64,000 bases of DNA from Candidatus Poribacteria bacterium (lineage in GTDB: Bacteria; Poribacteria; WGA-4E; WGA-3G). Of this stretch, positions 13,906 through 47,481 are shown one piece after another. The notes beneath the pieces were generated by a model. That model was given only the letters and a program-made list of their open reading frames with translations. It had not been told where the DNA came from and ran no database searches. The stretch is from the NCBI GenBank assembly GCA_963663765.2, contig CAXXUA010000011.1, positions 32,001 through 96,000 of the forward strand. Reading direction: 5' to 3'. Numbering within the stretch: position 1 is the first letter of the stretch; each line of letters opens with the position of its first letter. A program made the translations under genes and the position numbers.

Positions 13906-16608
13906 ATGCACAACGATTTTCTTGTTTTCAGTGACCTAACAGATGCAGAATTAATTCGGCTTGTTCAAAATAAGAATGAGAAAGCTTTTGCAGAACTCAT
14001 GTCCCGTTGGACACCATGGATTAGGGGTGTCATTGTAACGAATTCACGACAACGTCGAGACGTTGAAGAGATTCACACTGACATCTGGGTGGCAGTGTGG
14101 CAAAACATCAGAGAACTCAGAAAAATAGATAGTTTCAGTGCTTGGTTGCATCGTATTGCCTACAACGCTTGCAAGCGATACTACACATTAGCACGGCAAT
14201 CCCGGACTGAAATACCACATCAAGAGTCTGTGATAATTGAAAACATTGACCAATATGCTGCAGCGCGGTATAGAGAAGCACAATTGATTACTGATGTAAA
14301 AGAAGTTATACATTACCTTCCAGAGAAGGTGCGTTCTGTAGCGGAATTATTTTATTTAGAATCGTGGAGTATCAAAGAAATCTCTGAGGAGTTTAATCTT
14401 GCTATTGGTACAGTTAAAACAAAATTAAGAGAGATTCGAAAACTCCTGCGTGCGGAATTTGATGCAGAACCGATAAGAGGAGCAGTAATGCATACAAAAT
14501 ATGTTGAATCACATAGTCCGATTCAGATTGAGACTGATAAGGTAGAACCAAGTCGAATACCTGCAGTGTTTAATGTTGTTTCAAGCGATTCAACAGGTAA
14601 TACCTGGGCACTACCAGAGGGCGCAATTGTGAGGTTTGGTAAAGGAAACATGGGGGATGTTAAGCTATTACCAAATAGCAATTATTTTGCTGTGGGAACA
14701 ACGATTGGAATATGGTGGTATGATGTTTCTTCTATGTTGCCTATTTCGTTGTGGAAACCCTATATAGGTAATATTAGTTCCTTTGATTTCTCTCATGATG
14801 GTAAGTGGATTATCATTGACACGTTAGACGATATTATTATGGTATTGGATGTGCAGAGTGGTGAGAGAGTCATGCAAATTAAGGATCAAGACGGTTTTGG
14901 GGGTATTGCATGCTCAACAAATGGAAAATGGGTTGCAACAGCTGGTGGGGATGGTGTTATAAAGGTTTTGGATGTTCATGAAGGAAAATGTATCGCGCAA
15001 ATGGATCGCGGAAAGCACGAATGGAAATCAAATGATGTTAGGCAACTTGAGTTTTCACCAGATGGAGAATTACTTGCTGCTACAGTAGACAACCCAGAAT
15101 GTTTTTCAGATGATGAACAACTCCTGAATCCTGATGCAGAAGGAACACAGACTTATGTGTGGAAACCTGAAACTGGAGAACCGATCATCAAATTCGCTGG
15201 TAGAGACTATATGTTTTCTTCAGATAGTCATTTGTTAGCGGCAGCATCAATGGATGAGAGCAGGTTAGATGAAAAACGCGTTGACCGGAGTGTTTCGGTG
15301 TGGGATGTAACAACCCGTGAACGCATAGCACACTTTACTGGTCATGACGATTGGATAGATGCTGTTACCATTTCACCTTGTAACCAATTTGTTGCATCCA
15401 GTTCAAGGGATGGCACATTACGGGTCTGGAATCTTGAAAATGAATCACAGATAATGGAATATCCAAACTTTGAATATCCATTCTACACAAGAGATGGTAA
15501 GTTATTTTCATTCATCTATGTTTACTCTTCCAAAATGATTGAGGTCTGGGATGTAGAAAAAAGAGAACAAATGCTGGAGATAGAAGTTGGAATTGGTGGT
15601 TATGATTTCGCTAAATCCTTAGCCATTACAAAGGTTATTGATTTATTAAATGAGCATGAAAAATCACCATCAACCATATCATCTGGTAGTAAGCTTCCAC
15701 AATATAAAATACAAAGTGAACCTGATTTTCCGAATCCCAGTCCATTGATAAATTGGGTTGATGACCAGACACTTACATGTAGCAGAATGGGTTATAGCAT
15801 TCAACTATGGGATGTTAAACAAAAGTGTCAAAGTAATAGATTATTAGCTGATAAATGGATATATCATTACACGATTCTAAATTCTGGAAATATACTTGCC
15901 TTAGAAATAGATGGTAATGCAACGGTGTGGGATAGTAACAAAACCCAAAAATCTGTCATAAGGTTTTCATTGCCATCTGATTGGACCAGTGAAAAGATAT
16001 TTGACCCAAACGGGAATTATCTTGCAGCTGGAAGAAAAGATGGTAATATATATGTGTGGAATCTCAAACAATCTTCCCAGTCTATTTTATCGACAGGACA
16101 TTCAGACGAAATCAACTCATTAGCATTTTCTGCTGATGGATGTAGATTAGTGAGTAGTGCATGTGATAAATCGGTGAGGGTATTTGATCTGCTGTTAGGT
16201 GAGGAGATTGCAATTTTACCTATGAACACTCCATGTTCACCTTTAGCATTAGCGTATTCTCCGTGTGGTAAATTGATTGCTGGAGAATTGGATCAGGAAA
16301 TCCGTTTGTGGTGTGCTAAGGAATTCACAACGAAACTCACAATAACCCAAGGTAAAGTTTACCGACGTACATTTCCACTCGTATTTTCACCTTGTGGAAA
16401 GTATCTCGCAGGAGCAACTTGGTGGCAGGCGGGTAGGGAGAATCTGACAATTCGGATATGGGAAGTTTCTACAGGTGAACAAATTCATTCATTGCAGGGA
16501 CATAATTCATTTGTGCGATCGCTTGCCTTTTCACCGAATGGCTCAATGTTAGCGAGTGGTTGTTCCAATGGCACAATCTTGGTGTGGGATCTGAATCCTT
16601 ATCTATAG
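13906..16608 (+). CDS. ECF sigma factor (clade B)-WD40 repeat fusion, soluble
   Basis: Sigma2 (FSAWLHRIAYNAC) and sigma4 (SIKEISEEFNLAIGTVKTKL), then WD40 repeats (GHDDWIDAV, FSPCG, WD); no TM segment. Confidence 0.88.
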   Translation: MHNDFLVFSDLTDAELIRLVQNKNEKAFAELMSRWTPWIRGVIVTNSRQRRDVEEIHTDIWVAVWQNIRELRKIDSFSAWLHRIAYNACKRYYTLARQSRTEIPHQESVIIENIDQYAAARYREAQLITDVKEVIHYLPEKVRSVAELFYLESWSIKEISEEFNLAIGTVKTKLREIRKLLRAEFDAEPIRGAVMHTKYVESHSPIQIETDKVEPSRIPAVFNVVSSDSTGNTWALPEGAIVRFGKGNMGDVKLLPNSNYFAVGTTIGIWWYDVSSMLPISLWKPYIGNISSFDFSHDGKWIIIDTLDDIIMVLDVQSGERVMQIKDQDGFGGIACSTNGKWVATAGGDGVIKVLDVHEGKCIAQMDRGKHEWKSNDVRQLEFSPDGELLAATVDNPECFSDDEQLLNPDAEGTQTYVWKPETGEPIIKFAGRDYMFSSDSHLLAAASMDESRLDEKRVDRSVSVWDVTTRERIAHFTGHDDWIDAVTISPCNQFVASSSRDGTLRVWNLENESQIMEYPNFEYPFYTRDGKLFSFIYVYSSKMIEVWDVEKREQMLEIEVGIGGYDFAKSLAITKVIDLLNEHEKSPSTISSGSKLPQYKIQSEPDFPNPSPLINWVDDQTLTCSRMGYSIQLWDVKQKCQSNRLLADKWIYHYTILNSGNILALEIDGNATVWDSNKTQKSVIRFSLPSDWTSEKIFDPNGNYLAAGRKDGNIYVWNLKQSSQSILSTGHSDEINSLAFSADGCRLVSSACDKSVRVFDLLLGEEIAILPMNTPCSPLALAYSPCGKLIAGELDQEIRLWCAKEFTTKLTITQGKVYRRTFPLVFSPCGKYLAGATWWQAGRENLTIRIWEVSTGEQIHSLQGHNSFVRSLAFSPNGSMLASGCSNGTILVWDLNPYL

Positions 16609-17068
16609 GATATATGGAGTTTTTTGATAAAAATTAGACAATCACTCAATCGGGGTTGGAAATCCCTCCAACAATAGGTTCGTCTGTAGTATTGATGCCT
16701 ATGAGTTTAGGAAATACCTGCTATAAACTCATCAACTCAGAAGAATAGGTCAACATATTCCGGTATTCGCTATAAACGTGTTCTTATGCCAAATTAATCT
16801 GATTTGTATTGATTTTAATGTGTAGAACACGGGCGGGGACCAAATCAAGTAATCAACGGTATGAATACCTTATGGTATTCCCGGGGTATGAATCATGGAA
16901 CATGCCACACGTGCATACTTCTTCAGGCATTCCTCGCCTAACGTTGAGTGCATAAGACCTGTATAATATGTATTGTTAAGAAATAATAATTAAACCTGAT
17001 CCTACCTTGTTCAATTCCTAATCTATGTGTTTACCGTGTTTCAGAAATCGCGTATATCTATTAGAATA

Positions 17069-17242
17069 ACCTAAGTTGCTACCAATGTAGCACAATCTGT
17101 TAGATTGTGCTACAATAACTTGTGAAAAGGACATCAGAGAACACAAACTGACAGTTTGTGCTACAATAACTTGTGAAAAGGACATTATCCTAAGAATAAA
17201 CGGAATCTGCAGGTCTATAATCCTATTGGTAGCAACTTGCGT
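17069..17242. mobile_element. 174-bp MITE-like element with REP hairpins
   Basis: Inverted ends AAGTTGCTACCAAT / ATTGGTAGCAACTT; direct repeat TAGAATA on both flanks. Confidence 0.6.
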
Positions 17243-17300
17243 TAGAATAGTTGGATTACTTTACATACATATTCAAATTATGTCCTCAATGCAACCTTCA

Positions 17301-17328
17301 ATAATAGTAAACGCGTCATGTTTAATTG
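17301..17328 (+). promoter_or_regulatory. Putative ECF promoter, class A (GCAACC-N17-CGTCA)
   Basis: AAC (-35) and CGT (-10) ECF signature; five copies with a 17-nt spacer. Confidence 0.7.
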
Positions 17329-17352
17329 GAACAACTATTCATGAGTATTTTG

Positions 17353-19961
17353 ATGGAAAACAATGATATTGAACTCATCCAGAATATATTATCAGGTGAT
17401 GAATCTGCTTTCAGTAAGTTGGTAAAAAAATACTTCAAAAGAGCGTTCATGCATTTGTATGGCGGAAAATTGGGGATTATCACATCGCAGAGGAAATCAC
17501 GCAAGATACCTTCCTGCAGGCATACAAAAAATTGCACACCCTAAAGGACCATAATTTATTTGCTGGATGGTTGTATGTCATTGCGAATCGTCGTTGTATT
17601 GCATGGTTGCGTAAGAAAAGACTGGTGTTGCAATCGTTGGATTCAACAAGTGAAGAAATACTGGAAAAAACCGCTTATGCCTACTATGTATCAGAACAAC
17701 GTGAATTTGCATCCGCTGAACGTCGTCGTGAAATTGTTGATAGTCTTCTGGAAAAGTTGCCAGATACTCAACGCACAACGATGATCCTCCACTATCTCGG
17801 AGAAATGTCTTGTCAAGCAATCAGCAAATTATTGGGTGTTTCTTTGAACACGGTAAAAAGCAGGCTTAACCGAGCACGAAATCTATTAAGACTGGAAGAA
17901 CCCATACTTCAAGAGGCACCTAACCAACTACAGGGAGACATTCTTATGGAAAACCAAACGGCATCAAATCCTGTACCATTAAGATCATTTGAAGGTGATG
18001 TTACAACTTGGGAACTCCCTGAAGGTGCGCTTGCGCGATTGGGTCGTGGCAGTGAACCGAAAATGGCGTTCTCACCTGATGGGAACTATCTTGCTATTGG
18101 TACCGGCATAGGGCTCTGGCTATATGATGTTGCTACACTTTCACCTGTAGCATTTTGGGAGGTAGAACAAGGTGTAGTCGCATCTGTAGCCTTTTCTCCT
18201 AACGGCAAATGGATAGCAGTTAACAAATCAGGTGGAAACATTAAGATTTTGGATGTCCAAAATGGTACGTGTGTGACACAGATGAAATCAGAGACCTTCT
18301 TAGAAGGAATGGTCTTTTCCCACGATAACCGTTATCTCGCTGTGGCTTATTGGAGTACTTCTGGTGTTGAAGTTTGGCATGCGGAAACCGGTAAACCGTT
18401 TGCAAAATTGACTGCAGACATTGAAAGAGGTGGTATTTACCGTCCTATTTGTTTCTCACCTGATACTCGACTGATAGCCTCTACGTGCAGCTCAGGAACA
18501 ACTGAAGATGCGGAATCTATAGTATTGTGGAACTTAGCAAGCGGTGAACAAATTGCATATCTCTCAGCGCACACCTATTTGGTAACGTCTCTCTGCTTTT
18601 CACCGTGCGGGAAGTTCCTCGCCTCCGGTGGTGAAGATGGTACTGTGTACGTTTGGGACGTTAGGACATGGCAACAGGTGCAATGTTATACTGAATATGG
18701 TGCAGTATATCGTATTATTCCTTCTTGGACACCCGATGGCATTCTCCGCGCAGCAATTGTCCATTATGATGTGACTGGACCAACAACTATCTCAGTCCGT
18801 GACCTTGAAAATGATGAGCAGCTTTACACGGATCAAGTTTGGGGCAATACCATAGATTTTTCCTACATTGGTGATTGGGGTAACACGGTAGAATTTTCAA
18901 ACGGTTCACAACTTGCGTATGAAGGCAGACATGAATTTATCAACATTAGTACTCTTGAAAATCCTGTCAAACGTCAATTCACGCATTCGCCTATTTCATT
19001 TCCAACCTCAATGGTATTCTCAAATGACGGTAAGACGTTAGCCGTTCAGCATCATCAAGAGGGTGTTGTTTTATGGGATATTGAAAGTAAACGTTCACGT
19101 TCTGCAATTAAAGAGACATCTTCAGGTAAAAACCAGTTTGTATATAAGACTAATGATGGTAAACTCTATGCTGCAAGTATCAAAGTTGACACAGTTACGC
19201 TTTGGCAAGCTGATGGTGATGGGACCCCTTTTATTGAAGCATCTGGACGCTTATACTGGGGCGCGTTTCCTGCATTATCACCAACAGGTACACTATTCGC
19301 CTATGCTGATGAAGATGGTAACATACATGTTTGGGATGTGAATAGTGGAAAAAAACTATATGAATTAACACATCCCCTTGAACCGAGTGATAACAACGTT
19401 GACGATGACGAAGATGATGGTGACTTTGTTTATGAGTTGGAATTCAGTCATGATGGAAAATTACTCGTAAGTGTTTCAAATGCAAGAAATGTCAGAGTGT
19501 GGGACATGGAACTTGGACAAGAAATAGAATTGTTACCAGATGGTAGAGTTACGGGATTTCGGTTTTGTGAGTGTGGACAGCACCTTGTTTGCTTTAGCGA
19601 TGAAGTTATTCCATATTGGGATGTCTTTAACCGAGAATTCTGTGAGGATGATACATGCCTATATGAATCGAAACAGATTGAAATTGAATCGAGGTTGTCA
19701 CTACCCAAAGAGTATGAATATATTGAAAAACCGGTATTTACTACATGTGGACAGTACATTGCATTTATAACATCGTGGAACAAGGTTTCAAAGAGTTTTC
19801 CAATCTGTCTGTTTGAAGTGGAGAGTGGTAATCATCTTATCACCTTTAGGGGACACAGCACAGAGTTGAATGCACTTGTTCTTTCTCCAGACAACAAGCT
19901 TTTGGCCAGTGCGAGTCATGATGGTACTGTCCTGCTTTGGGATTTCGCTCCTTATCTGTGA
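17353..19961 (+). pseudogene. Frameshifted ECF sigma (clade A)-WD40 fusion; WD40 part intact
   Basis: MENNDIELIQNILSGDESAFSKLVKKY in one frame; QKSVHAFVWRKIGDYHIAEEITQDTF continues in the frame of ORF 17532-19961; extra TT at 17434-17435 relative to paralogues. Confidence 0.8.
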
Positions 19962-19991
19962 TCGTCAAAAATCATAAAGATATGACTTTTT

Positions 19992-20019
19992 TAAACCTTT
20001 TACCCCAAAACCCTCCTCT
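19992..20019 (+). promoter_or_regulatory. Putative ECF promoter, class B (TAAACC-N17-CCTCT)
   Basis: Matches 13848 and 44859. Confidence 0.6.
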
Positions 20020-20049
20020 ATACAATAAAACTGGCTCAGGAATTTGTTT

Positions 20050-22749
20050 ATGTACAACGATTTTCTTGTTTTCAGTGACCTAACAGATGAAGAATTAATT
20101 CGGCTTGTTCAAAACAGGAATGAGAAAGCTTTTGTCGAGCTGATGTCCCGTTGGACACCACGAATTAGGGGTGTCATTGTAGCGAATTCACGACAACGTC
20201 GAGACGCTGAAGAGATTCACACTGACATCTGGGTAGCTGTATGGCAAAACATCAGAGAACTCAGAAATGTAGATAGTTTCGGTGCCTGGTTGCATCGTAT
20301 TGCCTACAACGCTTGCAAGCGATACTACACTGTGGCAAGACAATCACGCAGTGAAGTTCCATATCAACATTCTGTGATTGTTGAAAACATTGACCTATAT
20401 GCTGCAGCGCGATATAGAGAAGCACAATTGATTGCTGATGTAAAAGAAGCTGTTCATAACTTACCAGAAAAGGTGCGTTCTGTAGCGGAATTGTTTTATT
20501 TAGATTCGTGGAGTATTAAAGAAATATCGGAGGAATTTGATTTTGCTATTGGTACAGTTAAAACGAAATTAAGAGAGATACGAAAACTCCTGCGTGAGGA
20601 ATTTAATGCAGAACCGATAAGAGGAGACGTTATGTCTTCAAAAAATGTTGAATCACACAGTCCAATTCAGCTTGAGACAAATAAAACCAAACCAAGCCAA
20701 ATGCCCGCACAGCTGAATGTTGTTGCGAACGATCCTACAGGGAATACCTGGGCACTACCAGAGGGCGCAATTGTGAGGTTTGGTAAAGGGAACGACGAAG
20801 ATCTTAAGCTTTCACCTGATGGAAAGTTTATTGCTGTCGGGACTCGGTTAGGGCTATGGTGGTATGATGTTTCCTCAATATCACCTATTTCGTTATGGGA
20901 ACTGGGTAAAGGCTCCGCCAGTTCCATTGATTTTTCACCAGATGGCAAATGGATCGTCATATATACAGGGAACAAAACCCTCAAGGTAATGGATATAAAA
21001 AGCGGAGAGTGCGTCATGCAGATTGATTATCATGATGCCTATAACGATCTTGTATGTTCATCAAATGGAAAATGGGTGGCGACAGCATCTATGAAAGGCA
21101 TTGTAAAGGTGTTGGATATCCAAACTGGTGAGTGCATCGCACAGATGGATCGTGGAGAACACATACGGCAATCAAACGATATTACCAACCTTCAATTTTC
21201 CCCGGATGGTAAATTGCTTGCCGCGCATGCTGGGAACCCCAAACTTTATTCAAACAACGACGAACTCTTGAATCCTGATACAGAGGGACCTCAAATTTAT
21301 ATTTGGTGCCCTCAAACGGGTAAGATGATACTCAAGTTTGCAGGACAAGAATTTACCTTCTCTTCAGACAGTCGCTTGTTAGCGGTTACATGTCCTGACG
21401 AAACCTTGAACGAAGACGAAAGCGTTGACCGTTGGGTTTCAGTATGGGATGTAACATCAAGGGAACTCCTCACACAATTTACAGGACATGACGATTGGAT
21501 AGATGCAGTCGCTTTTTCACCTTGTGGACAACTCGTTGCATCAAGTGATGGGGTCCTACGGTTATGGGATATTGCAACAAGTTCAGAAGTAAAGTTTTTT
21601 CCGGACTTTCCGGACTTTAACAATTATTTTTTCGCAGAGGATGGAGAACTGTTTGCAGTAATAATTCCTAATTCACCTAATTTGTCTATTGAAATATGGA
21701 ATGTAGAGCATCGTGAAAAGATATTTGAGATATCTGATATTGATGGTTTGGCATATTCTTTTGCCCGGGTCTATATAGAACACGTGGTTAAAACAGCATC
21801 CTACAAACAGACAGATGCCCAAATACCGGCGTTCTCAAGAATGCAAGAACCTCAGTTCCCCCCGTGGATCGTGCTGCAGATAAATTGGTTAGATGACCAG
21901 ATACTTGTGAGCAATGATGTCAAAGGAATAGTGTTGTGGGATGTCGACAAGAAATGTTACCGAGATACAGTGTCCATAGATGGCTGGCTGGATGCTATCA
22001 CCGTTCTACCCTCTGGTAAAATGCTGGTTTCTTATTTTCCTGATGAGGATAGCATGTGTGTTGCCAGCATACCTGATCAACTAATTGCTGAGTTCACTTT
22101 TCCTGATGAACTATTGGAATTGAATCGTTATCGCGCATTTGCACCGACTGGTGAGTATGTTGCGACAGGAAGTAGTGAAGGCACAGTCTATGTGTGGAAT
22201 CTCAACCAACCTGAGCACCCCATACGTCTCAAGGGACATACAGATTACGTTTACAGAGTTGCGTTTTCGTGGGATGGGAAACGACTCGTGAGTGGGGCAA
22301 GTGACGAGACTGCCCGTGTGTGGGATGTGGGATTAGGCAAAGAAATTACCAGATTGCCTATGGACGAGTCTTGCACAGTGTGGGGATTTGTGTTCTCACC
22401 CTGTGGTAGCCTTATCGCGGGATCCTTGGATAATGAGATTCGTTTGTGGTGCGCTAAGCAGTTCACAAAGGTCCTTTCAATACCGCAACCGGAGAAGAAC
22501 AGGCAGACTTATCCACTTGCATTTTCACCGTGCGGTCAGTACCTTGCAGCAGCGACTTCGTGGCCGGAGGGTTCGGAAAATATTGCAGCAATTCGGATAT
22601 GGGATGTCGCTACAGGTGAACAAATTCATGCTTTCCAGGGACATAACTCACTCGTGCAATCGCTTGCGTTTTCACCGAATGGTACAATGTTAGCGATTGG
22701 TTGTAACAATGGTACAATCCTGGTGTGGGACTTGAGACCGTATCTATAG
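20050..22749 (+). CDS. ECF sigma factor (clade B)-WD40 repeat fusion, soluble
   Basis: Sigma part nearly identical to the 13906 gene; FSPCG-type WD40 repeats; ends WDLRPYL. Confidence 0.88.
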   Translation: MYNDFLVFSDLTDEELIRLVQNRNEKAFVELMSRWTPRIRGVIVANSRQRRDAEEIHTDIWVAVWQNIRELRNVDSFGAWLHRIAYNACKRYYTVARQSRSEVPYQHSVIVENIDLYAAARYREAQLIADVKEAVHNLPEKVRSVAELFYLDSWSIKEISEEFDFAIGTVKTKLREIRKLLREEFNAEPIRGDVMSSKNVESHSPIQLETNKTKPSQMPAQLNVVANDPTGNTWALPEGAIVRFGKGNDEDLKLSPDGKFIAVGTRLGLWWYDVSSISPISLWELGKGSASSIDFSPDGKWIVIYTGNKTLKVMDIKSGECVMQIDYHDAYNDLVCSSNGKWVATASMKGIVKVLDIQTGECIAQMDRGEHIRQSNDITNLQFSPDGKLLAAHAGNPKLYSNNDELLNPDTEGPQIYIWCPQTGKMILKFAGQEFTFSSDSRLLAVTCPDETLNEDESVDRWVSVWDVTSRELLTQFTGHDDWIDAVAFSPCGQLVASSDGVLRLWDIATSSEVKFFPDFPDFNNYFFAEDGELFAVIIPNSPNLSIEIWNVEHREKIFEISDIDGLAYSFARVYIEHVVKTASYKQTDAQIPAFSRMQEPQFPPWIVLQINWLDDQILVSNDVKGIVLWDVDKKCYRDTVSIDGWLDAITVLPSGKMLVSYFPDEDSMCVASIPDQLIAEFTFPDELLELNRYRAFAPTGEYVATGSSEGTVYVWNLNQPEHPIRLKGHTDYVYRVAFSWDGKRLVSGASDETARVWDVGLGKEITRLPMDESCTVWGFVFSPCGSLIAGSLDNEIRLWCAKQFTKVLSIPQPEKNRQTYPLAFSPCGQYLAAATSWPEGSENIAAIRIWDVATGEQIHAFQGHNSLVQSLAFSPNGTMLAIGCNNGTILVWDLRPYL

Positions 22750-22768
22750 ACAACAAGGAGTAAACATA

Positions 22769-24829
22769 ATGCAAAATCGTAGACCTGCAGAGCTTAATGT
22801 TGTTCCGAACGACCCGACTGGGAATACCTGGGCATTACCAAAAGACGCAATTGTGCGATTTGGAACAGGGGATCAGAAGTCTGCTAAACTTTCCCCCGAT
22901 GGCAGGTATCTTGCCGTTGGCACTGGGATAGGTCTATGGTGGTATGATACCACGTCTATGTTGCCGATCTCGCTCTGGGAAACGGAAAGAAATATTAGTT
23001 CAATTGATTTCTCTCATGATGGCAGACAGATTATGATTTGCAATTGGGATCGTATCATTAAGGTCATGGATGTTCAAACTGCTGAATGTATTTATGAAAT
23101 GGAAGTGCAAGGTTCAAATTTCACCTTATCATCAAACAGCAAGTGGATTGCATCATCTGATGGGCAAGGAATTGTTAGAGTACATGATATACAGAAAGGT
23201 GAATTTTTAGCACAGATGGATCGTGGAGAACATAAATGGAAGTCAAACGATGTTTCTCAGCTTGATTTTTCACCAGATGGCAACCTCCTTGCTGGCACTG
23301 CACAAAATCAAAAATTCTGGTCGCCTGACGATGACCGTGTGCTTATCCCCGACAGAGAAGGCGAACAAATATACCTATGGAATCCAGAAACAGGGGAGTT
23401 AATACTCAAATTTGCGGGCAACGATTTTGTCTTTTCGGAAGATAGTCGTTTGTTGGCAGGCGCATCTCCGGATGATTCCCATTCCTCCAGTGATGTAGAA
23501 CGTATTGACCACTGTGTCTCGGTGTGGGATATTAAAAACAGGGAACGTATTGCCCACTTCACAGAACATGACGATTGGGTACAGGCTATCACTTTTTCAC
23601 CGTGTGGCAAGTTCATCGCTTCATGTGATGAAACGCTGCGAGTATGGGAACTGGCAACCGGCACGCAAATGATGGCGTATGAGAAGTGCTATGATTCCTT
23701 CTACTCCCCGGATGGTGTGTTATTTGGGTTTGTATTTGTTACCGATGATACGATAGAGGTTTGGAACATAGATTCTCAGCAAAAAGTGCTGGAACTACCT
23801 CAAAGTATTAATTTTCAGTTCGCAAAAGGTTGGGTTTTCGTCTACATGCAAGAACATCAATTTCAAATCGCTGAAATAATTGCTAACAAACAAATAAATA
23901 GCATACAGTGGACACATCCAATAGAACATAAAATTCATTTTGCCACACCGGACCCATTGGTAGTTTGGGTAGATGATCAGACTCTTGCGAGTGGGAGCCT
24001 TAGGCAAGGTATCGTGTTATGGGATATTGTGGAAAAACGGGTTCGTGAAAGGTTGTTAGATGGAGAATATATCCATATCTTCACAGTTCTACCTGATGGT
24101 AAAATGTTAGCTGCTTTAGTAAGTTCTCTTTACGAACCGACTAAGGTGTGGGATGTAGCAAATCCTGAAAAACCCATCACTGAGTTCCATACAAATTTGT
24201 GGTGGGAAAGGCACCAAGCGTTCACTGCCGCAGGCGATCTTATGGCTGCAGGGAGTAACGACGGACCAGTTTATATCTGGAACTTACAGCAACCTGAACA
24301 TCCAGTACTTCTTACGGGACATACAGATTCCATTGAGGTAGTGGTGTTTTCCCCAAATGGAGGGATGCTTGCGAGTGGGGCATTTGACAATACTACACGT
24401 TTGTGGGATGTTGCGTTGGGCAAAGAAATTGGCACATTGCCTGTAGACGTGCCTCTTACAACAAGGTCAATAAAATTCTCTCCTTGTGGTAACATAATAG
24501 CTGGAGGATTGGGCAGCGAAATCCGTTTGTGGTGTGCTGAGAAAATTACAACAATATGCACAATTCCACAGCCAGACAACAACCAACGGACTTATGCACT
24601 CGCTTTTTCACCGTGTGGAAAATATCTCGCATCGGGAACATGGTGGGAGAAGGGCATGCAAAAAATGGCTATCCGTTTATGGGACGTTGCTACCGGTGAA
24701 AATATCCATACTTTCTGGGGGCATAACTCAGATGTGCAATCGCTTGCGTTTTCACCAAATGGGGCAATGCTTGCAAGTAGTAGTTTTGATGGTACAATCT
24801 TAATCTGGGATTTGAAACCGTATCTGTAG
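22769..24829 (+). CDS. WD40 repeat protein (no sigma domain)
   Basis: SD AAGGAG; begins like the post-sigma part of the 20050 gene (LNVV.NDPTGNTWALP); WD40 repeats. Confidence 0.9.
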   Translation: MQNRRPAELNVVPNDPTGNTWALPKDAIVRFGTGDQKSAKLSPDGRYLAVGTGIGLWWYDTTSMLPISLWETERNISSIDFSHDGRQIMICNWDRIIKVMDVQTAECIYEMEVQGSNFTLSSNSKWIASSDGQGIVRVHDIQKGEFLAQMDRGEHKWKSNDVSQLDFSPDGNLLAGTAQNQKFWSPDDDRVLIPDREGEQIYLWNPETGELILKFAGNDFVFSEDSRLLAGASPDDSHSSSDVERIDHCVSVWDIKNRERIAHFTEHDDWVQAITFSPCGKFIASCDETLRVWELATGTQMMAYEKCYDSFYSPDGVLFGFVFVTDDTIEVWNIDSQQKVLELPQSINFQFAKGWVFVYMQEHQFQIAEIIANKQINSIQWTHPIEHKIHFATPDPLVVWVDDQTLASGSLRQGIVLWDIVEKRVRERLLDGEYIHIFTVLPDGKMLAALVSSLYEPTKVWDVANPEKPITEFHTNLWWERHQAFTAAGDLMAAGSNDGPVYIWNLQQPEHPVLLTGHTDSIEVVVFSPNGGMLASGAFDNTTRLWDVALGKEIGTLPVDVPLTTRSIKFSPCGNIIAGGLGSEIRLWCAEKITTICTIPQPDNNQRTYALAFSPCGKYLASGTWWEKGMQKMAIRLWDVATGENIHTFWGHNSDVQSLAFSPNGAMLASSSFDGTILIWDLKPYL

Positions 24830-24847
24830 GATACATAGAGATTTTTG

Positions 24848-31327: not shown

Positions 31328-31340
31328 CCAATAATTGTAA

Positions 31341-33723: not shown

Positions 33724-33761
33724 CTATAATTGTATCCCTAAAATGAACATTGAGGTGTCGG

Positions 33762-36700: not shown

Positions 36701-36745
36701 CCGATAATTATAATTGTAAGACAAAATTGATGATGGAGGTGTCGG

Positions 36746-39760: not shown

Positions 39761-39800
39761 CCTATTATTGTATGCATAAAATGAACATGGGTGGAATTTA

Positions 39801-42536
39801 ATGGAAAAAGACGACGTTCAATTGATTCAACAGATTTTGGTAGGTGATGAATCTGCTTTTGGTGATTTAGTCCAAAAACATCAAAAAAGTGTGCATGCAG
39901 TTGCATGGCGTGAAATTGGGGATTTTCATTTCGCTGAAGAAATTACGCAAGATGTCTTTCTTCAGGTCTACAAAAAATTACCTACGTTAAAAGACCAGAA
40001 CCTTTTTTCTGGTTGGCTCTATGTCATCACGAAAAGGCAGTGTATTGCATGGAAACGAAAGAACAAACAATCAATACGATCAGTGGATACCATGAATCAA
40101 GAAAGATTGGATGATACAGCCTATTCGCAGTATGTTTCAGAACAGCGAGAGGACGCAGCATCTGAATACCGTTATCAAATAGTGCAAAATTTACTGGAAA
40201 AACTTCCTGAGATTGAACGGACAGTCATGGTACTTCACTACCTTGGAGAAATGACGTGTGAGGCAATCGGTAAGTTCTTAGGTGTGTCACCGAACACAGT
40301 TAAAAGTCGTTTGAGTCGTGCGCGAAAACGTTTGAGGGAGGAGGATGCTATTTTACGCGAAACGCTTGGGAGTGTTTCACTATCTCCGAATCTGACACAG
40401 AATATCTTGGAAAAAATCAGAAACATTGAACAGACACCCCCTTCTGATAGTAAACCGCTGTTGCCTTTAGGGGCATTAGGATCTTCTATAGTCTTAATTG
40501 TTTTTCTTTTAGGAATGAGTAATCAATTCTTGACTCAATATCAGTTACCTTATAGTCTTGATGCACAATCAGAAACAACCATAGAAATTGTTGAAGCACC
40601 GATTATAACTGAAATTAAATCTACATCTGATGAACAAAAAAGAGTTGGTAGCAACACTTCACCTGGGAACAGTAGTAACAATGGTTTCCAAAAAGGAAAT
40701 AAAGAAATGCAGAACAATCTTCACCAAGATTCAACAAAATGGAAATTACCCGATGGAGCAAAAGCACGGTTAGGAAAGGGACACATATTTGATATGGCAT
40801 ATTCCCCTGATGGCAAACTGCTTGCTGCTGGAGGTACGATCGGAATTTGGTTATACGATGCAAACACAGGAAAAGAACTTAACCTGTTTGTGGAAAACAT
40901 GGAAAGTTCCGGAACTATCGCTTTCAGTCCGGACAGTCAACTTCTTGCTTCTAATGGTAGTGATAACGCTATCTTATTATGGAATCCCTTTACTGGAGAG
41001 CATAAGGCAACTCTAAAGGGGCATCAAGATAGTGTTAATTCCGTTGTGTTTAGTCCTGATGGTAAAACAATCGCGAGTGGAAGTGATGATGAGACAATTC
41101 GGTTTTGGAATGTTGCATCTGGGGAACTCCTACGAACCTTTGCTGGGCATGGGGGTGGTGTTTCTGAAGTCATCTATTCCCCAGATGGAAAAGTCCTTAT
41201 CAGTTATGGAAGTGATAAGATGATACACTTATGGAATGCTCAATCAGGAGAATTCATGCATACCCTTAACGGACATAAAGGCAGTATTTCTGAAATTTTA
41301 TTCTCTTATGACGGTAAGTATTTTGCAAGTGGTGGTGGGGATGGGAGAATACGGTTGTGGGAACTACATACAAGTCACGAGAAACCAACTTTAGAAATAG
41401 AAGCCACTTCAGCACTCCACGGTTTTCGTACAATAACATTCAGTCCAACTGATAGTATACTTGTCTGTTCAAATTACGGAGATGATGAAATTCAGTTTTG
41501 GGATGTAGAGACAGGTAAATTGCTCAAAACCATTGATAGTCCAGAGGATACAACCTATCATCTTGCATTGTCGCCAGATGGAAAGACACTTGTGAATGCA
41601 GGGGGTGACGGAACAATCCTGTTCTGGGATGTTGCTACTTCTAAATCTAAACTTACCCTAACTGGATATGCTGAGATGTTTAGGGATATGGCTTATTCAC
41701 CTGATGGTAGTACCCTTGTTACTGTAAGTAGCGGTCCGAGTCTTCGGTTATGGGACACCAACAGTGGCAAGCTAAAAAAGACTTACTATCCGGGTACGGT
41801 AAACATCACTTGTATTACTTTTGCACCGGATGGTGTGACACTTGCGTGTGGTCCTGGTCCATACGAATACGACACAGTATTTCTACTTAACACTGAAACG
41901 GGTGAATTTGGACGTATCTTCCAAGGTGACTATGAAGGTTTTGAATCAGTAGCATTTAGTTCTGATGGGAAGACGCTTGCAAGTGGCGATGACAATGGTA
42001 ACATCTATTTGTGGGATGTTGAAACGGGTGAAAAAGTAAGAATAATTGAATGGGAACAAGATATTGTCAGAACGGTGGAATTTTCACCAGATGGTGAAAC
42101 CCTTGTCAGTACCAATGATTCAAAAGTCTGTTTTTGGGATATAAACACTGGCAAGTCGGTAAAAACAATTACTGCGACTTCAATTGTTATCTCACCAGGA
42201 TGGGATAAGTTTGTATGTGTTAATTGGGTAAAGGGTGGTACTACGCAGTTTTGGAATATGGGGGATGACGAACCAGTTAAGACCATCACACCGGAAGAAA
42301 GAACCTATTTTCAGGAGTATTCACCAGATGGAAAAACAATTGTGGGTACCGGTCCCAGAGAAACTATATCATTTTGGGATGCTAATACTCATGAGGTATT
42401 GCATACGATTTCTGATGAACATAAAAAAAGTTCAAGGTACGAGCGTACTTATTTTGTTAGGTATTCACCGGATGGACGCACCATTGCAACCGCAGGATGG
42501 GACAGCACTGTGCTGTTATGGGATGCTCCACGTTAA
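39801..42536 (+). CDS. ECF sigma factor (clade A)-transmembrane-WD40 fusion
   Basis: Sigma2/sigma4 motifs, TM LGALGSSIVLIVFLLGM, WD40 repeats. Confidence 0.9.
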   Translation: MEKDDVQLIQQILVGDESAFGDLVQKHQKSVHAVAWREIGDFHFAEEITQDVFLQVYKKLPTLKDQNLFSGWLYVITKRQCIAWKRKNKQSIRSVDTMNQERLDDTAYSQYVSEQREDAASEYRYQIVQNLLEKLPEIERTVMVLHYLGEMTCEAIGKFLGVSPNTVKSRLSRARKRLREEDAILRETLGSVSLSPNLTQNILEKIRNIEQTPPSDSKPLLPLGALGSSIVLIVFLLGMSNQFLTQYQLPYSLDAQSETTIEIVEAPIITEIKSTSDEQKRVGSNTSPGNSSNNGFQKGNKEMQNNLHQDSTKWKLPDGAKARLGKGHIFDMAYSPDGKLLAAGGTIGIWLYDANTGKELNLFVENMESSGTIAFSPDSQLLASNGSDNAILLWNPFTGEHKATLKGHQDSVNSVVFSPDGKTIASGSDDETIRFWNVASGELLRTFAGHGGGVSEVIYSPDGKVLISYGSDKMIHLWNAQSGEFMHTLNGHKGSISEILFSYDGKYFASGGGDGRIRLWELHTSHEKPTLEIEATSALHGFRTITFSPTDSILVCSNYGDDEIQFWDVETGKLLKTIDSPEDTTYHLALSPDGKTLVNAGGDGTILFWDVATSKSKLTLTGYAEMFRDMAYSPDGSTLVTVSSGPSLRLWDTNSGKLKKTYYPGTVNITCITFAPDGVTLACGPGPYEYDTVFLLNTETGEFGRIFQGDYEGFESVAFSSDGKTLASGDDNGNIYLWDVETGEKVRIIEWEQDIVRTVEFSPDGETLVSTNDSKVCFWDINTGKSVKTITATSIVISPGWDKFVCVNWVKGGTTQFWNMGDDEPVKTITPEERTYFQEYSPDGKTIVGTGPRETISFWDANTHEVLHTISDEHKKSSRYERTYFVRYSPDGRTIATAGWDSTVLLWDAPR

Positions 42537-42589
42537 TTTTATATATATAAACTCTAAGGCAACACAAATCCTAAGGAACCCACAATCAG

Positions 42590-44554
42590 ATGAAAATAAC
42601 AAATCTCTTGTTAAATGAATTACCACTGCTTTCTATTGTACTCTTTTTCACTTTTTACTCCATAGCAGCATTTGCTCAAATTCATAATCAATTAGGATTA
42701 CCAGAGGGAGCAAAAGCGCGTCTGGGAAAGGGCGGAATAAAGCATATAAAGTATTCTCCTGATGGCAAGTATTTTGCAGTCGCAACGTCCATAGGTATCT
42801 GGCTGTATGATGTTAATACATTACAAGCAGTTGACCTACTTACAGGTCATGATGCGCCTGTTACATCAATTGCATTTAGTATAGATGGACAAACGTTAGC
42901 GTCAAGTTGTGCGGACAATATTATCATCATCTGGAACACAGAAACACGTAAAATCAAAGCGAAAAATGTTGAATTTGATAAAGGCAAAAAAGACATAAAT
43001 TTATTAACTTTTTGTCCTTCGGGTGATATAGTAGCATGTATTAGTAGATCATGGTTCATTGAATTATTGAATGCACATACTGGAAAACTTATTAAGACAA
43101 TTAAAGATTCAAGAAATACAGATATAAACGCAATGGCATTTTCAACTGAAGACAATATGCTTATTACTGTTGGGTTTTGCGAAAGAAACACATCGTGTAT
43201 TGAATATTGGGATACAGGTGCAGGTGAACTGATTAGAGATATATTGATAGAAACAAATATTACTGATGCCGCGTTTTCTCCAGACAACAAAATACTTGCT
43301 GTCACTGGGAATAATTCGCACCCTCTCCAATTTTGGGATGTGAAGACAGGAAAGCATCTCAAAAATGCCGAGAAAAGTGATGTGGATTATGAGTATATTG
43401 CATTTTCTCACGATGGAAGTAGACTCGTAACAGGTGGTTCTTGGGAGTATGTAAGTCTTTGGGATGTAGACACGGTTGAAGAATTATACAACGTGGCGCA
43501 TGGTGAACCGATTAATTCTGTGGCATACTCACCAGATGGCGGGACAATAGCATGTGGTATTGACGATGGCACAATCCAGATATGGGATACTTCTACGGGA
43601 AAACTCCAAAACACTATCAAAGGACACTTAGATTTATCAATTTTCTCAATGGCTTTTTCACCTGATGGCAATAAGCTTGCGTGTGGTGCAGATTCCAAAG
43701 TCCTATTTTGGAATCCACACACCTACGAACATCTAAAAACCACAAAGGAGCCACGTTGTAAAGTCGTTGATATAGAATATTCTCCTGATGGTAATATTTT
43801 TGCTACAGTAGGTACTTCAATGAAAGCACGTTTGTGGGATAGACAAACGGGAAGGTTCCTTGGAAGTTTTATCGGAAATCATGAGAAGTATTTTTATAGT
43901 GCTTATAGAGATAAAGAAAAATTCACTTCTGTATCTTTCTCACCTGATGGTAACACACTTGCGACTGGTGATACAGACAATGAGGTTTGTTTATGGGCAA
44001 TACGCACAGGAGAACAATATCTAATTGGGGAACAACTTGCAACCTTTACAGAGCATACAGAGACTGTGACCTCCGTTGCGTTTTCACCAGATAGAAAAAC
44101 ATTGGCAAGTGGCAGCCTTGACAAGACAATTCGTTTGTGGGATGTGAAGGCGCGTAAACACCTCAAAGCAATCTCTGGACATGAAAAAGGGGTGAACGTA
44201 TTAGCCTTTTCACCAGATGGTAAAATACTTGCAAGTGGCAGTGAAGATGGTACTATACGATTATTGAAAATAGATGATTATGAAATCTTGTATGCACCAA
44301 TAGAAAATGTTGGGAATGTCAATGCTATAGCATTCTCTTCTGATGGAAAGATTCTAACAAGCATAAATAGTGATAGCAAATATATCAACTTTTGGAATGT
44401 GCAGACAGGTAAACTGATGCATACCTTTTCTGGACACACAAAAATCATCAATGCTATAGTATATTCACCAGATGGAGAAACACTTGCGAGTGTTAGTTCT
44501 GATGGTACTGTTCTTTTGTGGGATCTCAGAAAATTGATAAGTGATAACAGGTGA
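42590..44554 (+). CDS. WD40 repeat protein with predicted signal peptide
   Basis: Hydrophobic N-terminus ending AAFA-Q; LPEGAKARLGKG leader; FSPDG repeats. Confidence 0.88.
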   Translation: MKITNLLLNELPLLSIVLFFTFYSIAAFAQIHNQLGLPEGAKARLGKGGIKHIKYSPDGKYFAVATSIGIWLYDVNTLQAVDLLTGHDAPVTSIAFSIDGQTLASSCADNIIIIWNTETRKIKAKNVEFDKGKKDINLLTFCPSGDIVACISRSWFIELLNAHTGKLIKTIKDSRNTDINAMAFSTEDNMLITVGFCERNTSCIEYWDTGAGELIRDILIETNITDAAFSPDNKILAVTGNNSHPLQFWDVKTGKHLKNAEKSDVDYEYIAFSHDGSRLVTGGSWEYVSLWDVDTVEELYNVAHGEPINSVAYSPDGGTIACGIDDGTIQIWDTSTGKLQNTIKGHLDLSIFSMAFSPDGNKLACGADSKVLFWNPHTYEHLKTTKEPRCKVVDIEYSPDGNIFATVGTSMKARLWDRQTGRFLGSFIGNHEKYFYSAYRDKEKFTSVSFSPDGNTLATGDTDNEVCLWAIRTGEQYLIGEQLATFTEHTETVTSVAFSPDRKTLASGSLDKTIRLWDVKARKHLKAISGHEKGVNVLAFSPDGKILASGSEDGTIRLLKIDDYEILYAPIENVGNVNAIAFSSDGKILTSINSDSKYINFWNVQTGKLMHTFSGHTKIINAIVYSPDGETLASVSSDGTVLLWDLRKLISDNR

Positions 44555-44858: not shown

Positions 44859-44886
44859 TAAACCCTCACCTTATATCCCTTTCTCT
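44859..44886 (+). promoter_or_regulatory. Putative ECF promoter, class B (TAAACC-N17-TCTCT)
   Basis: Same boxes as 13848/19992 with a diverged spacer. Confidence 0.6.
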
Positions 44887-44922
44887 TTATATTAAAACCT
44901 AATTGATTTTTTGTAGATTTCT

Positions 44923-47481
44923 ATGGATATGGAAAATCTAAACGATCTTACAGATATAGAACTTATTCAGCGCGTCCAAAACCGTGATGAAGCCGCATTT
45001 GCGGAACTCATGTCCCGTTGGACGCCACGGATTTGGCGTATCGTTGTCTCAAAATCAAGGCAACATCGGGATGCGGAAGAAATTCATACTGATGTCTGGA
45101 TGGCTGTGTGGGAAAATATAGGGGGTCTCCGTAATATAGATAGTTTTGGTGCATGGCTGCGACGCATTGCATATAACGCTTGTAAGAGATATTATTCTTC
45201 TCATCGCCGCTCACGAGACGAAATCCCACAGAGCGATGCAGATTTAGTGGAACATATTGACCAAGATGCACCTGCACGTTATCAGGAAGCACAATTACGC
45301 GCAGATGCCAGAGAAGCGGTGAATCATCTTCCGCATCGGGTACGTCCTATAGCGATATTGTACTATCTTGAATCATGGAGTGTCAAAGACATTGCACACA
45401 AACTTAACTTAGCTATAGGCACAGTCAAGACAAGATTAAGAGAAGTCCGTTCACTTCTGCGGAAGGAGTTTGCTGTTGAACCTCAACAAGGAGATATTAT
45501 GTCGTTAGAATCCGTTGGATCACAAAATCTTGCGAATTATATTGAAAACTATCTACCGAAAGGCGCAATAACACGGTTCGGAAAAGGTTGTGTATTTGGT
45601 TTAGCATATTCGCCAGATGGCACCAGACTTGCTTTAGCAAGCACAATAGGTGTCTGGATGATCGATGTAGCAACCGGTGAGGAAATCAATCTGTTAACTG
45701 GACATACTGGTCATTTAACTGGACATACTTATTATGTCGAATACGTTGTTTTCAGTCCTGATGGTAAAACACTTGCAAGTCTAAGTAAAGGATACCAAGG
45801 CGATGATGTTATTCGTTTATGGGATGCTGCAACTGGTGATTTTATAGCGGTACTAACAGAGGATACATATCTTGTTGTATTTAGTCCTGATGGTAAAACG
45901 CTGGCAAGCGGCGGTGGTGGAGTAATTCATTTATGGGATGGTGCCACATTCGAACTAAAAACAACTCTCATAGGACACACACCACCAGTCAAAACGTTAA
46001 CGTTCAATCCAGATGGCAGCACACTCGCAAGCGGTGGTATTGATGAGGTAATCCGTTTATGGGATGTTACCACTGGTGAACTACAGTTAACATTTGCAGG
46101 ACACGCAAATTCTGTCGATTTTCTGAAGTATTCTCCAGATGGAAAGGTGCTTGTCAGTCAAGGTGGGGATAACAATGTTTGTTTATGGAATGCACGGACT
46201 GGTGAATTTTTGCGCATACTTACTACAGAAGACCCTTCTTGGCACGGTCTGAATATTGACTTTTCAAAAGATGGGAAAACTCTTGTGAGTGTGAATTCCG
46301 ATGAAAATGTCCGATTGTGGAACCCACATACCGGTGAGCAACTAAAAACAATAAAACAAGATAGAGAGCTTGAGGTAGTGCAGTATTCTCCAGATGGTAG
46401 AATATTTGCATGTAGTGAGTGTTATGGAGAAGCAACAGTCCAACTATTTGATGCTGCCACGGGAGAGCCATTACATTTTCTTAAAATGCCTGAACATGCA
46501 GAATGGGTTACTGATTTTCAATTTTCTCCAGATAGGCAGACACTTGCCGTTAAAACAGCGGAAGAAATATATTTCTGGGATGTGAATACTGGTGAACTTG
46601 AAAAGACAATCACCGGATATTCTGATGTAGTAAGTAGTGTAACATATTCTCCTGGTGGGAGAACATTAGCGAGCTTAGACAATTTCGTCCGTATTTGGGA
46701 CTTAGACACGCAGAAACTCGTAAAAACACTTTCCCCTAAAACACTTTCTGTAAAAGGATCAATAAGGGCAATCGCGTATTCTCCTAATGGGGAGATACTC
46801 GCTTGTGGAACTATGGATAAAACGATAGTACTATGGGATGTCCACAAGTGGAAAAAAAGAGGTGTACTCAAAGGACATACAGATGGCGTATCCTCGATAA
46901 CCTTTAGTCCAGATGGACAAACACTCGCTAGTGGCTGCTGGAACGGGACGATCCGATTGTGGAATGCTCACACAGGAGAAAACTTAAAAACCTTTGATAG
47001 GCATGCATCAAGTGTTCGCACAGTTTTATTTTCACCTAATGGACAGATCTTAGCCAGTATTGAAGAAGATGAAACAATTCGTTTTAGGAATGTTGCAACG
47101 GGGAAGCTTGTGAATGCTATAAAAATGGAAACAGATGTTGATGTCTGTTCTATAGATTTTTCTCCTGATGGGACAACCTTTGTTACCGCAGACGACAGAA
47201 CGAAAATCAATTTTTGGGATGTGGTAACTGCGGATCCAAAACCTATGACACACTTAGAAGCAAAAGGTTATTATGCTGTCCTTTCACCAGATGGGAATAC
47301 ACTTGCATGTGCTGATGTTGGGGATGAAATATTATTGTGGGATGTTGTCACAGGAAAACTTCTGAAAACTTTAAAAGGGCATATAAGTGGTATTAATTCT
47401 ATAGTCTTTTCTTCAGATGGTAAATCACTCGCGAGTTGCTGTAGGGACAGCACAGTAATTTTATGGGATTTAACGACGTAG
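44923..47481 (+). CDS. ECF sigma factor (clade B)-WD40 repeat fusion, soluble
   Basis: LTDIELIQRVQNRDEAAFAELMSRWTP, FGAWLRRIAYNAC, AIGTVKTRL; FSPDG-type repeats; no TM. Confidence 0.9.
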   Translation: MDMENLNDLTDIELIQRVQNRDEAAFAELMSRWTPRIWRIVVSKSRQHRDAEEIHTDVWMAVWENIGGLRNIDSFGAWLRRIAYNACKRYYSSHRRSRDEIPQSDADLVEHIDQDAPARYQEAQLRADAREAVNHLPHRVRPIAILYYLESWSVKDIAHKLNLAIGTVKTRLREVRSLLRKEFAVEPQQGDIMSLESVGSQNLANYIENYLPKGAITRFGKGCVFGLAYSPDGTRLALASTIGVWMIDVATGEEINLLTGHTGHLTGHTYYVEYVVFSPDGKTLASLSKGYQGDDVIRLWDAATGDFIAVLTEDTYLVVFSPDGKTLASGGGGVIHLWDGATFELKTTLIGHTPPVKTLTFNPDGSTLASGGIDEVIRLWDVTTGELQLTFAGHANSVDFLKYSPDGKVLVSQGGDNNVCLWNARTGEFLRILTTEDPSWHGLNIDFSKDGKTLVSVNSDENVRLWNPHTGEQLKTIKQDRELEVVQYSPDGRIFACSECYGEATVQLFDAATGEPLHFLKMPEHAEWVTDFQFSPDRQTLAVKTAEEIYFWDVNTGELEKTITGYSDVVSSVTYSPGGRTLASLDNFVRIWDLDTQKLVKTLSPKTLSVKGSIRAIAYSPNGEILACGTMDKTIVLWDVHKWKKRGVLKGHTDGVSSITFSPDGQTLASGCWNGTIRLWNAHTGENLKTFDRHASSVRTVLFSPNGQILASIEEDETIRFRNVATGKLVNAIKMETDVDVCSIDFSPDGTTFVTADDRTKINFWDVVTADPKPMTHLEAKGYYAVLSPDGNTLACADVGDEILLWDVVTGKLLKTLKGHISGINSIVFSSDGKSLASCCRDSTVILWDLTT

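Follow-up and report, generated by a model that had tools for sequence, protein, structure and literature searches.

Does a gene that joins an extracytoplasmic function (ECF) sigma factor to a WD40 domain specify one protein or two? The question is raised by a 64,000-nucleotide stretch of DNA (hereafter the window; positions 32001-96000 of contig C11) from a sponge-associated bacterium, Candidatus Poribacteria, with a genome of 6.35 Mb and approximately 41% G+C. Between 13.9 and 49.4 kb the window carries a same-strand array of 13 WD40 genes, seven of them headed by an ECF sigma domain (Pfam Sigma70_r2 and r4_2; r1 and r3 are absent). No hydrophobic segment follows sigma4 in four of these seven fusions (frames 13906, 17341/17532, 20050 and 44923, named by their starting positions), here termed soluble, and a hydrophobic, putatively transmembrane (TM) segment is found at this point in the other three (33762, 36746 and 39801); five WD40 genes of the array (22769, 24845, 29136, 42590 and 47515) stand alone. 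A preliminary description of this DNA reported a Shine-Dalgarno (SD) motif with an in-frame ATG at the sigma/WD40 junction of every soluble fusion, and offered two readings: that each gene produces both the fusion and a free WD40 protein, or that the motifs are fossils of repeated fusion between adjacent genes. On the comparisons reported here, the junction probably serves as an internal start of translation that descends from the coupled start of the anti-sigma gene in a sigma/anti-sigma operon, and would yield a sigma-less C-terminal protein beside the fusion.

Four SD and ATG motifs at the sigma/WD40 boundary

The soluble fusions and their junction motifs are as follows.

13906 to 16608, plus strand: sigma (regions 2 and 4) with a soluble WD40 extension (open reading frame and Pfam matches); its own 5' ATG lacks an SD
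17341 to 19961, plus strand: sigma-WD40 fusion of the TM-type sigma lineage without a TM segment; appears in the window as frame 17532-19961, split by two extra letters at 17434
20050 to 22749, plus strand: sigma-WD40 fusion, close paralogue of 13906 (open reading frame and Pfam matches)
44923 to 47481, plus strand: sigma-WD40 fusion of sigC type (open reading frame and Pfam matches); its own 5' ATG lacks an SD
14478 to 14490, plus strand: AGGAG (14478-14482), five nucleotides, ATG (14488-14490); in frame, the Met being residue 195 counted from ATG 13906
17933 to 17948, plus strand: GGGAG (17933-17937), eight nucleotides, ATG (17946-17948); in frame, the weakest of the four
20622 to 20634, plus strand: AGGAG (20622-20626), five nucleotides, ATG (20632-20634); in frame
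45488 to 45501, plus strand: AAGGAG (45488-45493), five nucleotides, ATG (45499-45501); in frame

All four motifs lie where they were first described, in frame with the long open reading frames (ORFs) 13906-16608, 17532-19961, 20050-22749 and 44923-47481, with spacers of 5, 8, 5 and 5 nucleotides (nt) and with the junction Met 12-18 residues beyond the end of the Pfam Sigma70_r4/r4_2 match. The 16S rRNA of this genome ends ...GGATCACCTCCTTTCTA, with the canonical CCUCCU, so AGGAGG is its cognate SD. The proposal that the junction falls where stand-alone WD40 genes begin also held, since both points sit shortly before the WD40 N-terminal motif W.LP.GA..R.G.G: this follows the junction Met by 17-40 residues, and the stand-alone starts 22769, 24845/24848, 29136 and 47515 lie 12-23 residues ahead of it. 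As had been noted, CAACAAGGAG (45484-45493) is common to the last site and the start region of gene 22769. Frames 13906 and 20050 are 86% identical in the sigma domain and, being close paralogues, leave the window with approximately three independent cases.

The domain structure on either side of the junction was defined with Pfam. PF04542 and PF08281/PF04545 reach their cut-offs within the N-terminal 190 or so amino acids (aa) of 13906, 20050, 44923, 33762 and a further locus, L044, and neither r1 nor r3 is matched in these five; PF00400 and many beta-propeller families match all seven window fusions. The segment following the junction Met (L044:659-1000; window 14488-14700) matched no Pfam family and hence no named anti-sigma domain, and an Rfam scan of the window gave no match.

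For frame 17532, which retains r4 alone, r2 is recovered once two letters at 17434 are omitted. Contigs assembled from four public runs, which belong to three studies (one of the runs may be the source sample), were aligned to 13700-23000, and all four omit these letters. Without them a single frame of 872 aa runs from ATG 17341 to 19961 with a sigma2 region that matches the family, which argues that the fusion is intact; the frameshift is most likely an assembly error. The contigs span the junctions at 14478, 17933 and 20622, with X1 and X2 exact there, and no printed difference of any run falls on a junction, 211 further differences being unprinted.

Occurrence elsewhere in the genome

Background rates were taken from the 2986 ORFs of at least 250 aa, with an SD core matched at a spacer of 4-10 nt. 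On this basis 31% of first ATGs carry a core of at least 4 nt, and of 20691 interior in-frame ATGs 480 (2.3%) carry one of at least 4 nt, 130 (0.63%) one of at least 5 nt, 39 (0.19%) one of at least 6 nt and 13 the full AAGGAGG. A site within the short linker of four soluble fusions out of four is thus not attributable to chance, even if 13906 and 20050 are counted once.

When every ORF of the genome was searched by blastp with the sigma domains, 28 sigma genes with long extensions were identified, whose junctions carry an SD of at least 5 nt with ATG in 19 cases, a 4-nt core in one and no such site in eight. These junctions account for nine of the 13 interior AAGGAGG and ATG sites of the genome, and for five of its 26 six-nucleotide sites; three of the four AAGGAGG sites that are not sigma junctions are probably true gene starts behind a frame that is open upstream. 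Nine of the 11 AAGGAGG words within the 28 fusions precede an in-frame ATG by 4-10 nt, compared with three of 104 in other ORFs of at least 250 aa.

The preliminary description had found no such junction in TM-containing fusions, a statement that is correct for the three in the window:

33762 to 36599, plus strand: TM-containing sigma-WD40 fusion; the junction column holds Leu (CTA) and the SD is absent
36746 to 39463, plus strand: TM-containing sigma-WD40 fusion; the junction column holds Leu (CTA) and the SD is absent
39801 to 42536, plus strand: TM-containing sigma-WD40 fusion; GGAGG is retained and the junction codon is ATT

It does not extend to the genome as a whole, and the implied restriction to soluble fusions was mistaken. 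Most TM-containing fusions outside the window have a complete AAGGAGG, coded as Lys-Glu-Glu within R-L-x-K-E-E-[TPS]-M-I-R-E and separated from the ATG by 5 or 8 nt, and in most of those elsewhere in the genome and in relatives the arrangement is the stronger AAGGAGG-5-ATG. The site is present too where a sigma domain of the same type is fused to an FtsZ/tubulin GTPase domain or to a BNR/sortilin-like propeller.

The fusions of sigma (regions 2 and 4) with an FtsZ/tubulin GTPase domain (PF00091, PF12327) are unusual in themselves. They occur at C13:379590-381374, C6:276016-277800 and C5:603526-604746 (loci L032 and L045), with an SD and ATG at the joint; frames of approximately 412 and 600 aa are seen again in further genomes of this genus, and locus L178 is a frameshifted example.

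Conservation among relatives

The family is greatly expanded in the genus, with at least 43 matches in one genome, and was found in three of the four families of the order that were sampled. Genes of the genome itself and loci of relatives with an extension of at least 100 aa were pooled and identical junctions removed, leaving 145 fusions. Within a 40-codon window at the junction, 81 of these have an SD of at least 5 nt with an ATG (70 of at least 6 nt; 49 AAGGAGG), a further seven show a core of 4 nt, 51 an ATG that lacks an SD and six no ATG. The corresponding figures for 40-codon control windows elsewhere in the same ORFs are 26 of 2457 for at least 5 nt and 68 of 2457 for at least 4 nt. 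Single-linkage clustering of the sigma domains at 70% identity gave 23 clusters, 17 of which possess the feature (11 in all members, six mixed) and six of which do not.

Orthologues of the site at 14478-14490 retain both SD and ATG. For the 45488 site, the junction nucleotides (...CAACAAGGAGATATT-ATG) are identical in L027 and L029, differ by one upstream letter in L174 and include AAGGAGG in L030. Relatives of the 17933 subtype include L089, with AAGGAG at a spacer of 8, and L088, with AAGGA at a spacer of 9. Outside the phylum, the Bacteroidota loci L109, L122, L125 and L153 and the Ignavibacteriota locus L108, as recovered in the scan, are ordinary sigma factors of 185-208 aa, and L152 (Bacteroidota, Saprospiraceae) is a 242-aa frame with nothing extending past sigma4.

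Selection at synonymous positions

Codons at the seven positions before the junction ATG were resampled synonymously according to the codon usage of this genome. This procedure predicts 13.8 junctions with an SD of at least 5 nt and 8.0 with one of at least 6 nt, compared with the 81 and 70 observed. The commonest context, RLQKEETM, is encoded with AAGGAGG in 17 of 18 cases, for an expected frequency of 0.07.

The codons concerned are minority choices in this genome (Lys AAG 29%; Glu GAG 25%, GAA 75%). In the 58 TM-type junctions with a Met, the Lys at -4 uses AAG in 35 and AAA in two, and the Glu that follows is GAG; the Glu at -2 has its third base beyond the SD core and uses GAA in 45 junctions and GAG in one. 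Codons for Leu, Gln, Thr, Ile and Arg on either side are free to vary. Even at 55-65% protein identity, paralogues keep AAG GAG whilst neighbouring synonymous sites are randomised, behaviour that, like the excess over resampling, tells against an unused fossil.

Amongst 30 distinct soluble-type junctions, 25 have an SD of at least 5 nt, two a 4-nt core and three none. The junction Gly is GGA in 27 of the 30 (31% in the genome), and the residue after it has a G-initial codon in 25, the other five having T or K, or a Gly that is unaligned. The SD is retained across the peptides IRG[AEGD]VM, TKGVSM, IKGA[TI]M, IEGGIM, QQGDIM, ERGGIM, IRRETM, TEEDTM, KRRISQM, KKEE[PTS]M and KEELTM, and in several registers: AGA-GGA-G (R-G-[AEGDV]), AAA-GGA-G (K-G), GAA-GGA-GG (E-G-G) and CAA-GGA-G (Q-G-D), and also A-AGG-AGA (I-R-R), GAG-GAG-G (E-E-D) and, in another family of the order, A-AGG-AGG (K-R-R). 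Survival of the SD through amino-acid replacements that are confined to G-initial codons is likewise difficult to reconcile with a fossil.

SD and ATG are moreover associated with one another. In a sigma4-anchored alignment of 114 TM-type junctions, 51 have both Met and SD, seven Met only, nine SD only (including one with GTG and one with Met one codon later) and 47 neither; these junctions are kin, not independent, and any nominal P-value is inflated by that kinship. The junctions show an SD that is held by purifying selection at synonymous positions and is coupled to the ATG. Conservation in orthologues of the SD at synonymous sites and of the Met, put forward in the preliminary description as a check on its two readings, is therefore clear, and favours two products over a decaying fossil.

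Operon ancestry, 5' starts and mRNA context

In canonical sigma/anti-sigma operons of this genome the SD of the anti-sigma gene lies in the last codons of the sigma gene and its ATG overlaps or abuts the sigma stop, as in ...atGGAGttattATGA. Ordinary operons of this kind include the following.

C15 303059 to 303668, coordinates on the reverse strand: ordinary sigma/anti-sigma operon
C5 1214897 to 1215425, coordinates on the reverse strand: ordinary sigma/anti-sigma operon
C5 935349 to 935949, coordinates on the reverse strand: ordinary sigma/anti-sigma operon

This arrangement is likely to be the ancestral state of the fusion junction, so that the fossil idea, disfavoured for the present day, is probably right as history.

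The 5' starts of soluble fusions have no SD in any of the four window genes, nor in any of 19 evaluable relatives of sigA/sigC type (51 of 145 genes, with frames that start too near the start, were left out of the tally). By sequence, then, the internal site is the stronger ribosome-binding site (RBS) in soluble fusions. An SD is missing from 69% of the first ATGs of the genome, and its absence at the 5' start is therefore no sign that the long form is not made. The sequence upstream of these starts is conserved, and an SD-less leader, '...TCTATA(t/c)AATAAAACtggctcaggaatttgttt-ATG', precedes 13906, 20050 and loci L160-L176; it may represent a cognate, auto-regulated promoter with a short leader.

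The mRNA is predicted to be less structured locally around the junction ATG (mean minimum free energy -6.96 versus -10.09 kcal/mol, z +0.9, n=79). SD-less ATGs in junction windows also deviate in this direction (z +0.5), so the effect is partly compositional and mRNA structure lends weak support.

Proposed mechanism

We propose that each site is a working internal RBS and start codon at the boundary between ECF sigma and C-terminal extension, derived from the coupled start of the downstream, anti-sigma gene of a sigma/anti-sigma operon whose stop was lost, and that ribosomes still use it. Two proteins would then come from one ORF: initiation at the 5' start would give the full fusion, and initiation at the junction Met a sigma-less C-terminal protein, the latter being a free WD40 propeller in the soluble type found in the window and, elsewhere, a TM and WD40 anti-sigma-like or an FtsZ-like protein. 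As soluble fusions have no SD at the 5' start, they may make more of the short form than of the long; their short form is predicted to be a cytoplasmic WD40 protein resembling the neighbouring stand-alone paralogues. The TM-type short form would comprise some 30-45 cytoplasmic residues (MIREAL..F.IS.NLT.NIM...), a TM helix and a periplasmic WD40 domain; this predicted topology is that of an anti-sigma factor, without a match to an anti-sigma Pfam family. The free form may supply extra sensor or anti-sigma-like modules, as partner or competitor of the sigma-tethered form. Prediction of a complex between the sigma domain and the C-terminal isoform returned a score of 0.00 without controls, which bears neither way on binding.

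Several observations weigh against this proposal. The feature is missing from 64 of the 145 fusions, including three of the seven in the window and six whole clusters, so the site is dispensable for the fusion architecture. All of the fusions are paralogues or orthologues of one expanded family in one phylum, and the counts consequently overstate the number of independent events; the resampling, furthermore, applied the codon usage of this one genome to all relatives. At 17933 the core is just 4 nt (GGAG) with a long spacer, and L101, a relative of this subtype, has no SD. The seven TM-type junctions with Met but no SD and the nine with SD but no Met count on the same side, as does the compositional share of the weaker mRNA structure.

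Alternative explanations

A variant of this mechanism, which we put forward tentatively, reverses the rank of the two products: the sigma-less module (WD40 sensor, TM and WD40 anti-sigma-like or FtsZ-like) would be the main product, made from a selected internal RBS, and the sigma-tethered form a minor subunit through which the state of a mixed assembly is signalled to RNA polymerase. If so, a single ORF would set the stoichiometry of sigma to anti-sigma or sensor, a device undescribed before that would recur tens of times per genome.

That the site is a non-functional fossil, the leftover start of a downstream gene fused by stop loss or frameshift and now unused, we regard as improbable. The junction is arranged identically to the canonical sigma/anti-sigma operons of the genome, ATGA (a +1-frame TGA over the ATG) occurs at 53 of the 81 junctions as it does in overlapped stop/start pairs, and the site was lost from, or never present in, the 64 fusions noted above. 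These features are set against the retention of AAG GAG, the excess over synonymous resampling and the constrained replacements, all of which bear on present use.

Slightly less probable still is a translational pause or other mRNA-level signal at the domain boundary, serving sigma folding or TM targeting, with the ATG incidental. The motif does lie exactly at the boundary and is strongest (AAGGAGG) in the membrane-inserted type. A pause nevertheless requires no start codon, yet SD and in-frame ATG occur together, both in the alignment of TM-type junctions (51/7/9/47) and in the genome-wide comparison (9/11 versus 3/104), and the soluble type carries the motif as well. SD-induced pausing has itself been disputed by later ribosome-profiling work.

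We consider very unlikely an SD-stimulated +1 frameshift in which termination at the TGA overlapping the junction ATG releases free sigma. A +1 stop is found within four codons in 73% of junctions with SD and ATG (96% of those of sigB type) as against 25% of controls; this follows, however, from the conserved Met-Ile (ATG ATx), and the stop is missing from nine of nine sigC-type junctions and present in just half of those of sigA type. No slippery codon or slow in-frame codon was seen at the junctions, and the need for an ATG would go unexplained.

Chance, or an assembly artefact wrongly joining two genes, is excluded for practical purposes by background rates that are far too low and by independent assemblies: the same uninterrupted fusion frames occur in many of these, including single-contig genomes, contigs of other runs span the junctions with no printed difference there, and the one assembly discrepancy in the window, at 17434, breaks a frame instead of creating a fusion.

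Other features of the array

The remaining WD40 genes of the array are listed below.

22769 to 24829, plus strand: stand-alone WD40 paralogue directly 3' of fusion 20050; AAGGAG 8 nt 5' of the ATG
24845 to 26836, plus strand: stand-alone WD40 paralogue, start 24845 or 24848
29136 to 31274, plus strand: stand-alone WD40 paralogue; GGAG 7 nt 5' of the ATG
31522 to 33588, plus strand: WD40 gene whose first 22 residues are a sigma N-terminus, the sigma being deleted in frame
42590 to 44554, plus strand: stand-alone WD40 paralogue with a hydrophobic N-terminus
47515 to 49428, plus strand: stand-alone WD40 paralogue directly 3' of fusion 44923

In gene 31522, 22 residues matching the TM-type sigma N-terminus abut the WD40 N-terminal motif, nearly the whole of sigma and the linker having been deleted in frame. 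A tblastn search 5' of the stand-alone WD40 genes found no sigma remnant besides this one, and a derivation of these genes from fusions by sigma decay was thus unsupported. At L180 (G009:C1:2296000-2300200) sigma2 has been lost and the sigma4 tail, junction Met and a 697-aa WD40 frame are still open; a frame for an unrelated membrane protein lies upstream. Together with the stand-alone paralogues, this locus indicates that the C-terminal module survives without sigma. Among the loci examined there was no split, ancestor-like pair of an unfused sigma of the same subfamily with its partner directly downstream; L145, a 191-aa sigma, has an unrelated gene after it, and L178 is the frameshifted sigma-FtsZ gene noted above.

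Three further observations concern the array itself. The ORF at 26873-28159 (428 aa) is not a WD40 gene and matches no Pfam family. Within the WD40 region of 33750-36599, a stretch of approximately 26 aa (GHFDEKHNGTIYLYDLNTG.LK.TL) is present in tandem, which suggests a recent internal duplication. The intergenic segment 16810-17244, which contains a 44-nt direct repeat and two inverted repeats, exceeds its flanks approximately 100-fold in summed contig depth in each of the four runs and looks like a small multicopy repeat element.

Comparison with known systems

Both parents of this arrangement, ECF sigma factors with C-terminal extensions and in-frame internal starts, are known; their combination is unreported in the literature searched. 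That search, in which subscription journals were thinly covered, found no report of a sigma fusion with an internal start, and sigma factors of Poribacteria did not feature in it at all. Fused ECF sigma factors are treated as 'one-component' regulators whose covalent link fixes sigma and regulator at 1:1. Were the internal start conserved and used, this assumption would fail, and a free regulator or sensor proteoform would exist in an amount set independently. If true, this would provide a testable handle on a very large signalling family of uncultivated sponge symbionts, with 20-50 copies per genome. Annotation is at risk in both directions, since a start-finder that favours the internal SD could drop the sigma domain and choice of the longest ORF would hide the second product. 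The comparative signal, an ATG linked to an SD that is preserved at synonymous sites, offers a general recipe for finding hidden proteoforms.

Group ECF57 was formerly called ECF01-Gob. In the parts of the published accounts drawn on here, its members have WD40-like repeats in a C-terminal extension and two conserved Cys, one each in sigma2 and sigma4 (PMC8999054), and are enriched in Planctomycetes (PMC8999054, PMC7826278), at 5.3 copies per planctomycetal genome (PMC7826278). Likened by description, the present fusions share with ECF57 an ECF core (sigma2 and sigma4), a long WD40-rich extension and many paralogues per genome; they differ in phylum (Poribacteria) and in a far higher copy number, reaching at least 43 matches in a single genome, and an internal start goes unmentioned in the portions of the ECF57 descriptions compared. 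As to Cys, the sigA/sigC type has one that is invariant, C89 (alignment A2); the TM types of the window and 17341 have Cys in both sigma regions (RRCKAW, EMSC/EMTC), and L044 has none in sigma4.

IutY of Pseudomonas putida (ECF243), according to the sections of its descriptions consulted, is a sigma/anti-sigma hybrid released by Prc/RseP proteolysis (PMC8999054, PMC5411451), and the TM-type fusions resemble it in that sigma and a membrane-spanning, anti-sigma-like part occupy one ORF. IutY possesses a FecR-type periplasmic domain in those accounts, whereas the fusions here have WD40 and the four soluble window fusions have no TM segment; the FecR family is absent among the 25 best Pfam matches per protein for the window fusions. 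Neither 'translation' nor 'start codon' appears anywhere in the IutY paper (PMC5411451), which hence describes no internal start.

In-frame internal starts that give a protein of the C-terminal domain are described, in the extracts of the reports used here, for phage endolysins such as CTP1L, for Cas11b within cas8b, and for E. coli genes by retapamulin profiling (PMC4777826, PMC9430671, PMC11899642, bioRxiv 10.1101/520783). As far as those extracts go, the likeness lies in an SD and start in frame at a domain boundary, with a short product that constitutes the C-terminal module. Those cases are experimental and concern other protein families, whereas the fusions described here are known by sequence comparison, and unlike the cases in those extracts they belong to a family that has tens of paralogues in each genome and C-terminal modules of several kinds. 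The junctions are, finally, like canonical ECF sigma/anti-sigma operons in placing the SD within the last sigma codons and the ATG at the junction, and unlike them in that the fusions contain no stop, so that ribosomes from the sigma start would read on into the downstream module.

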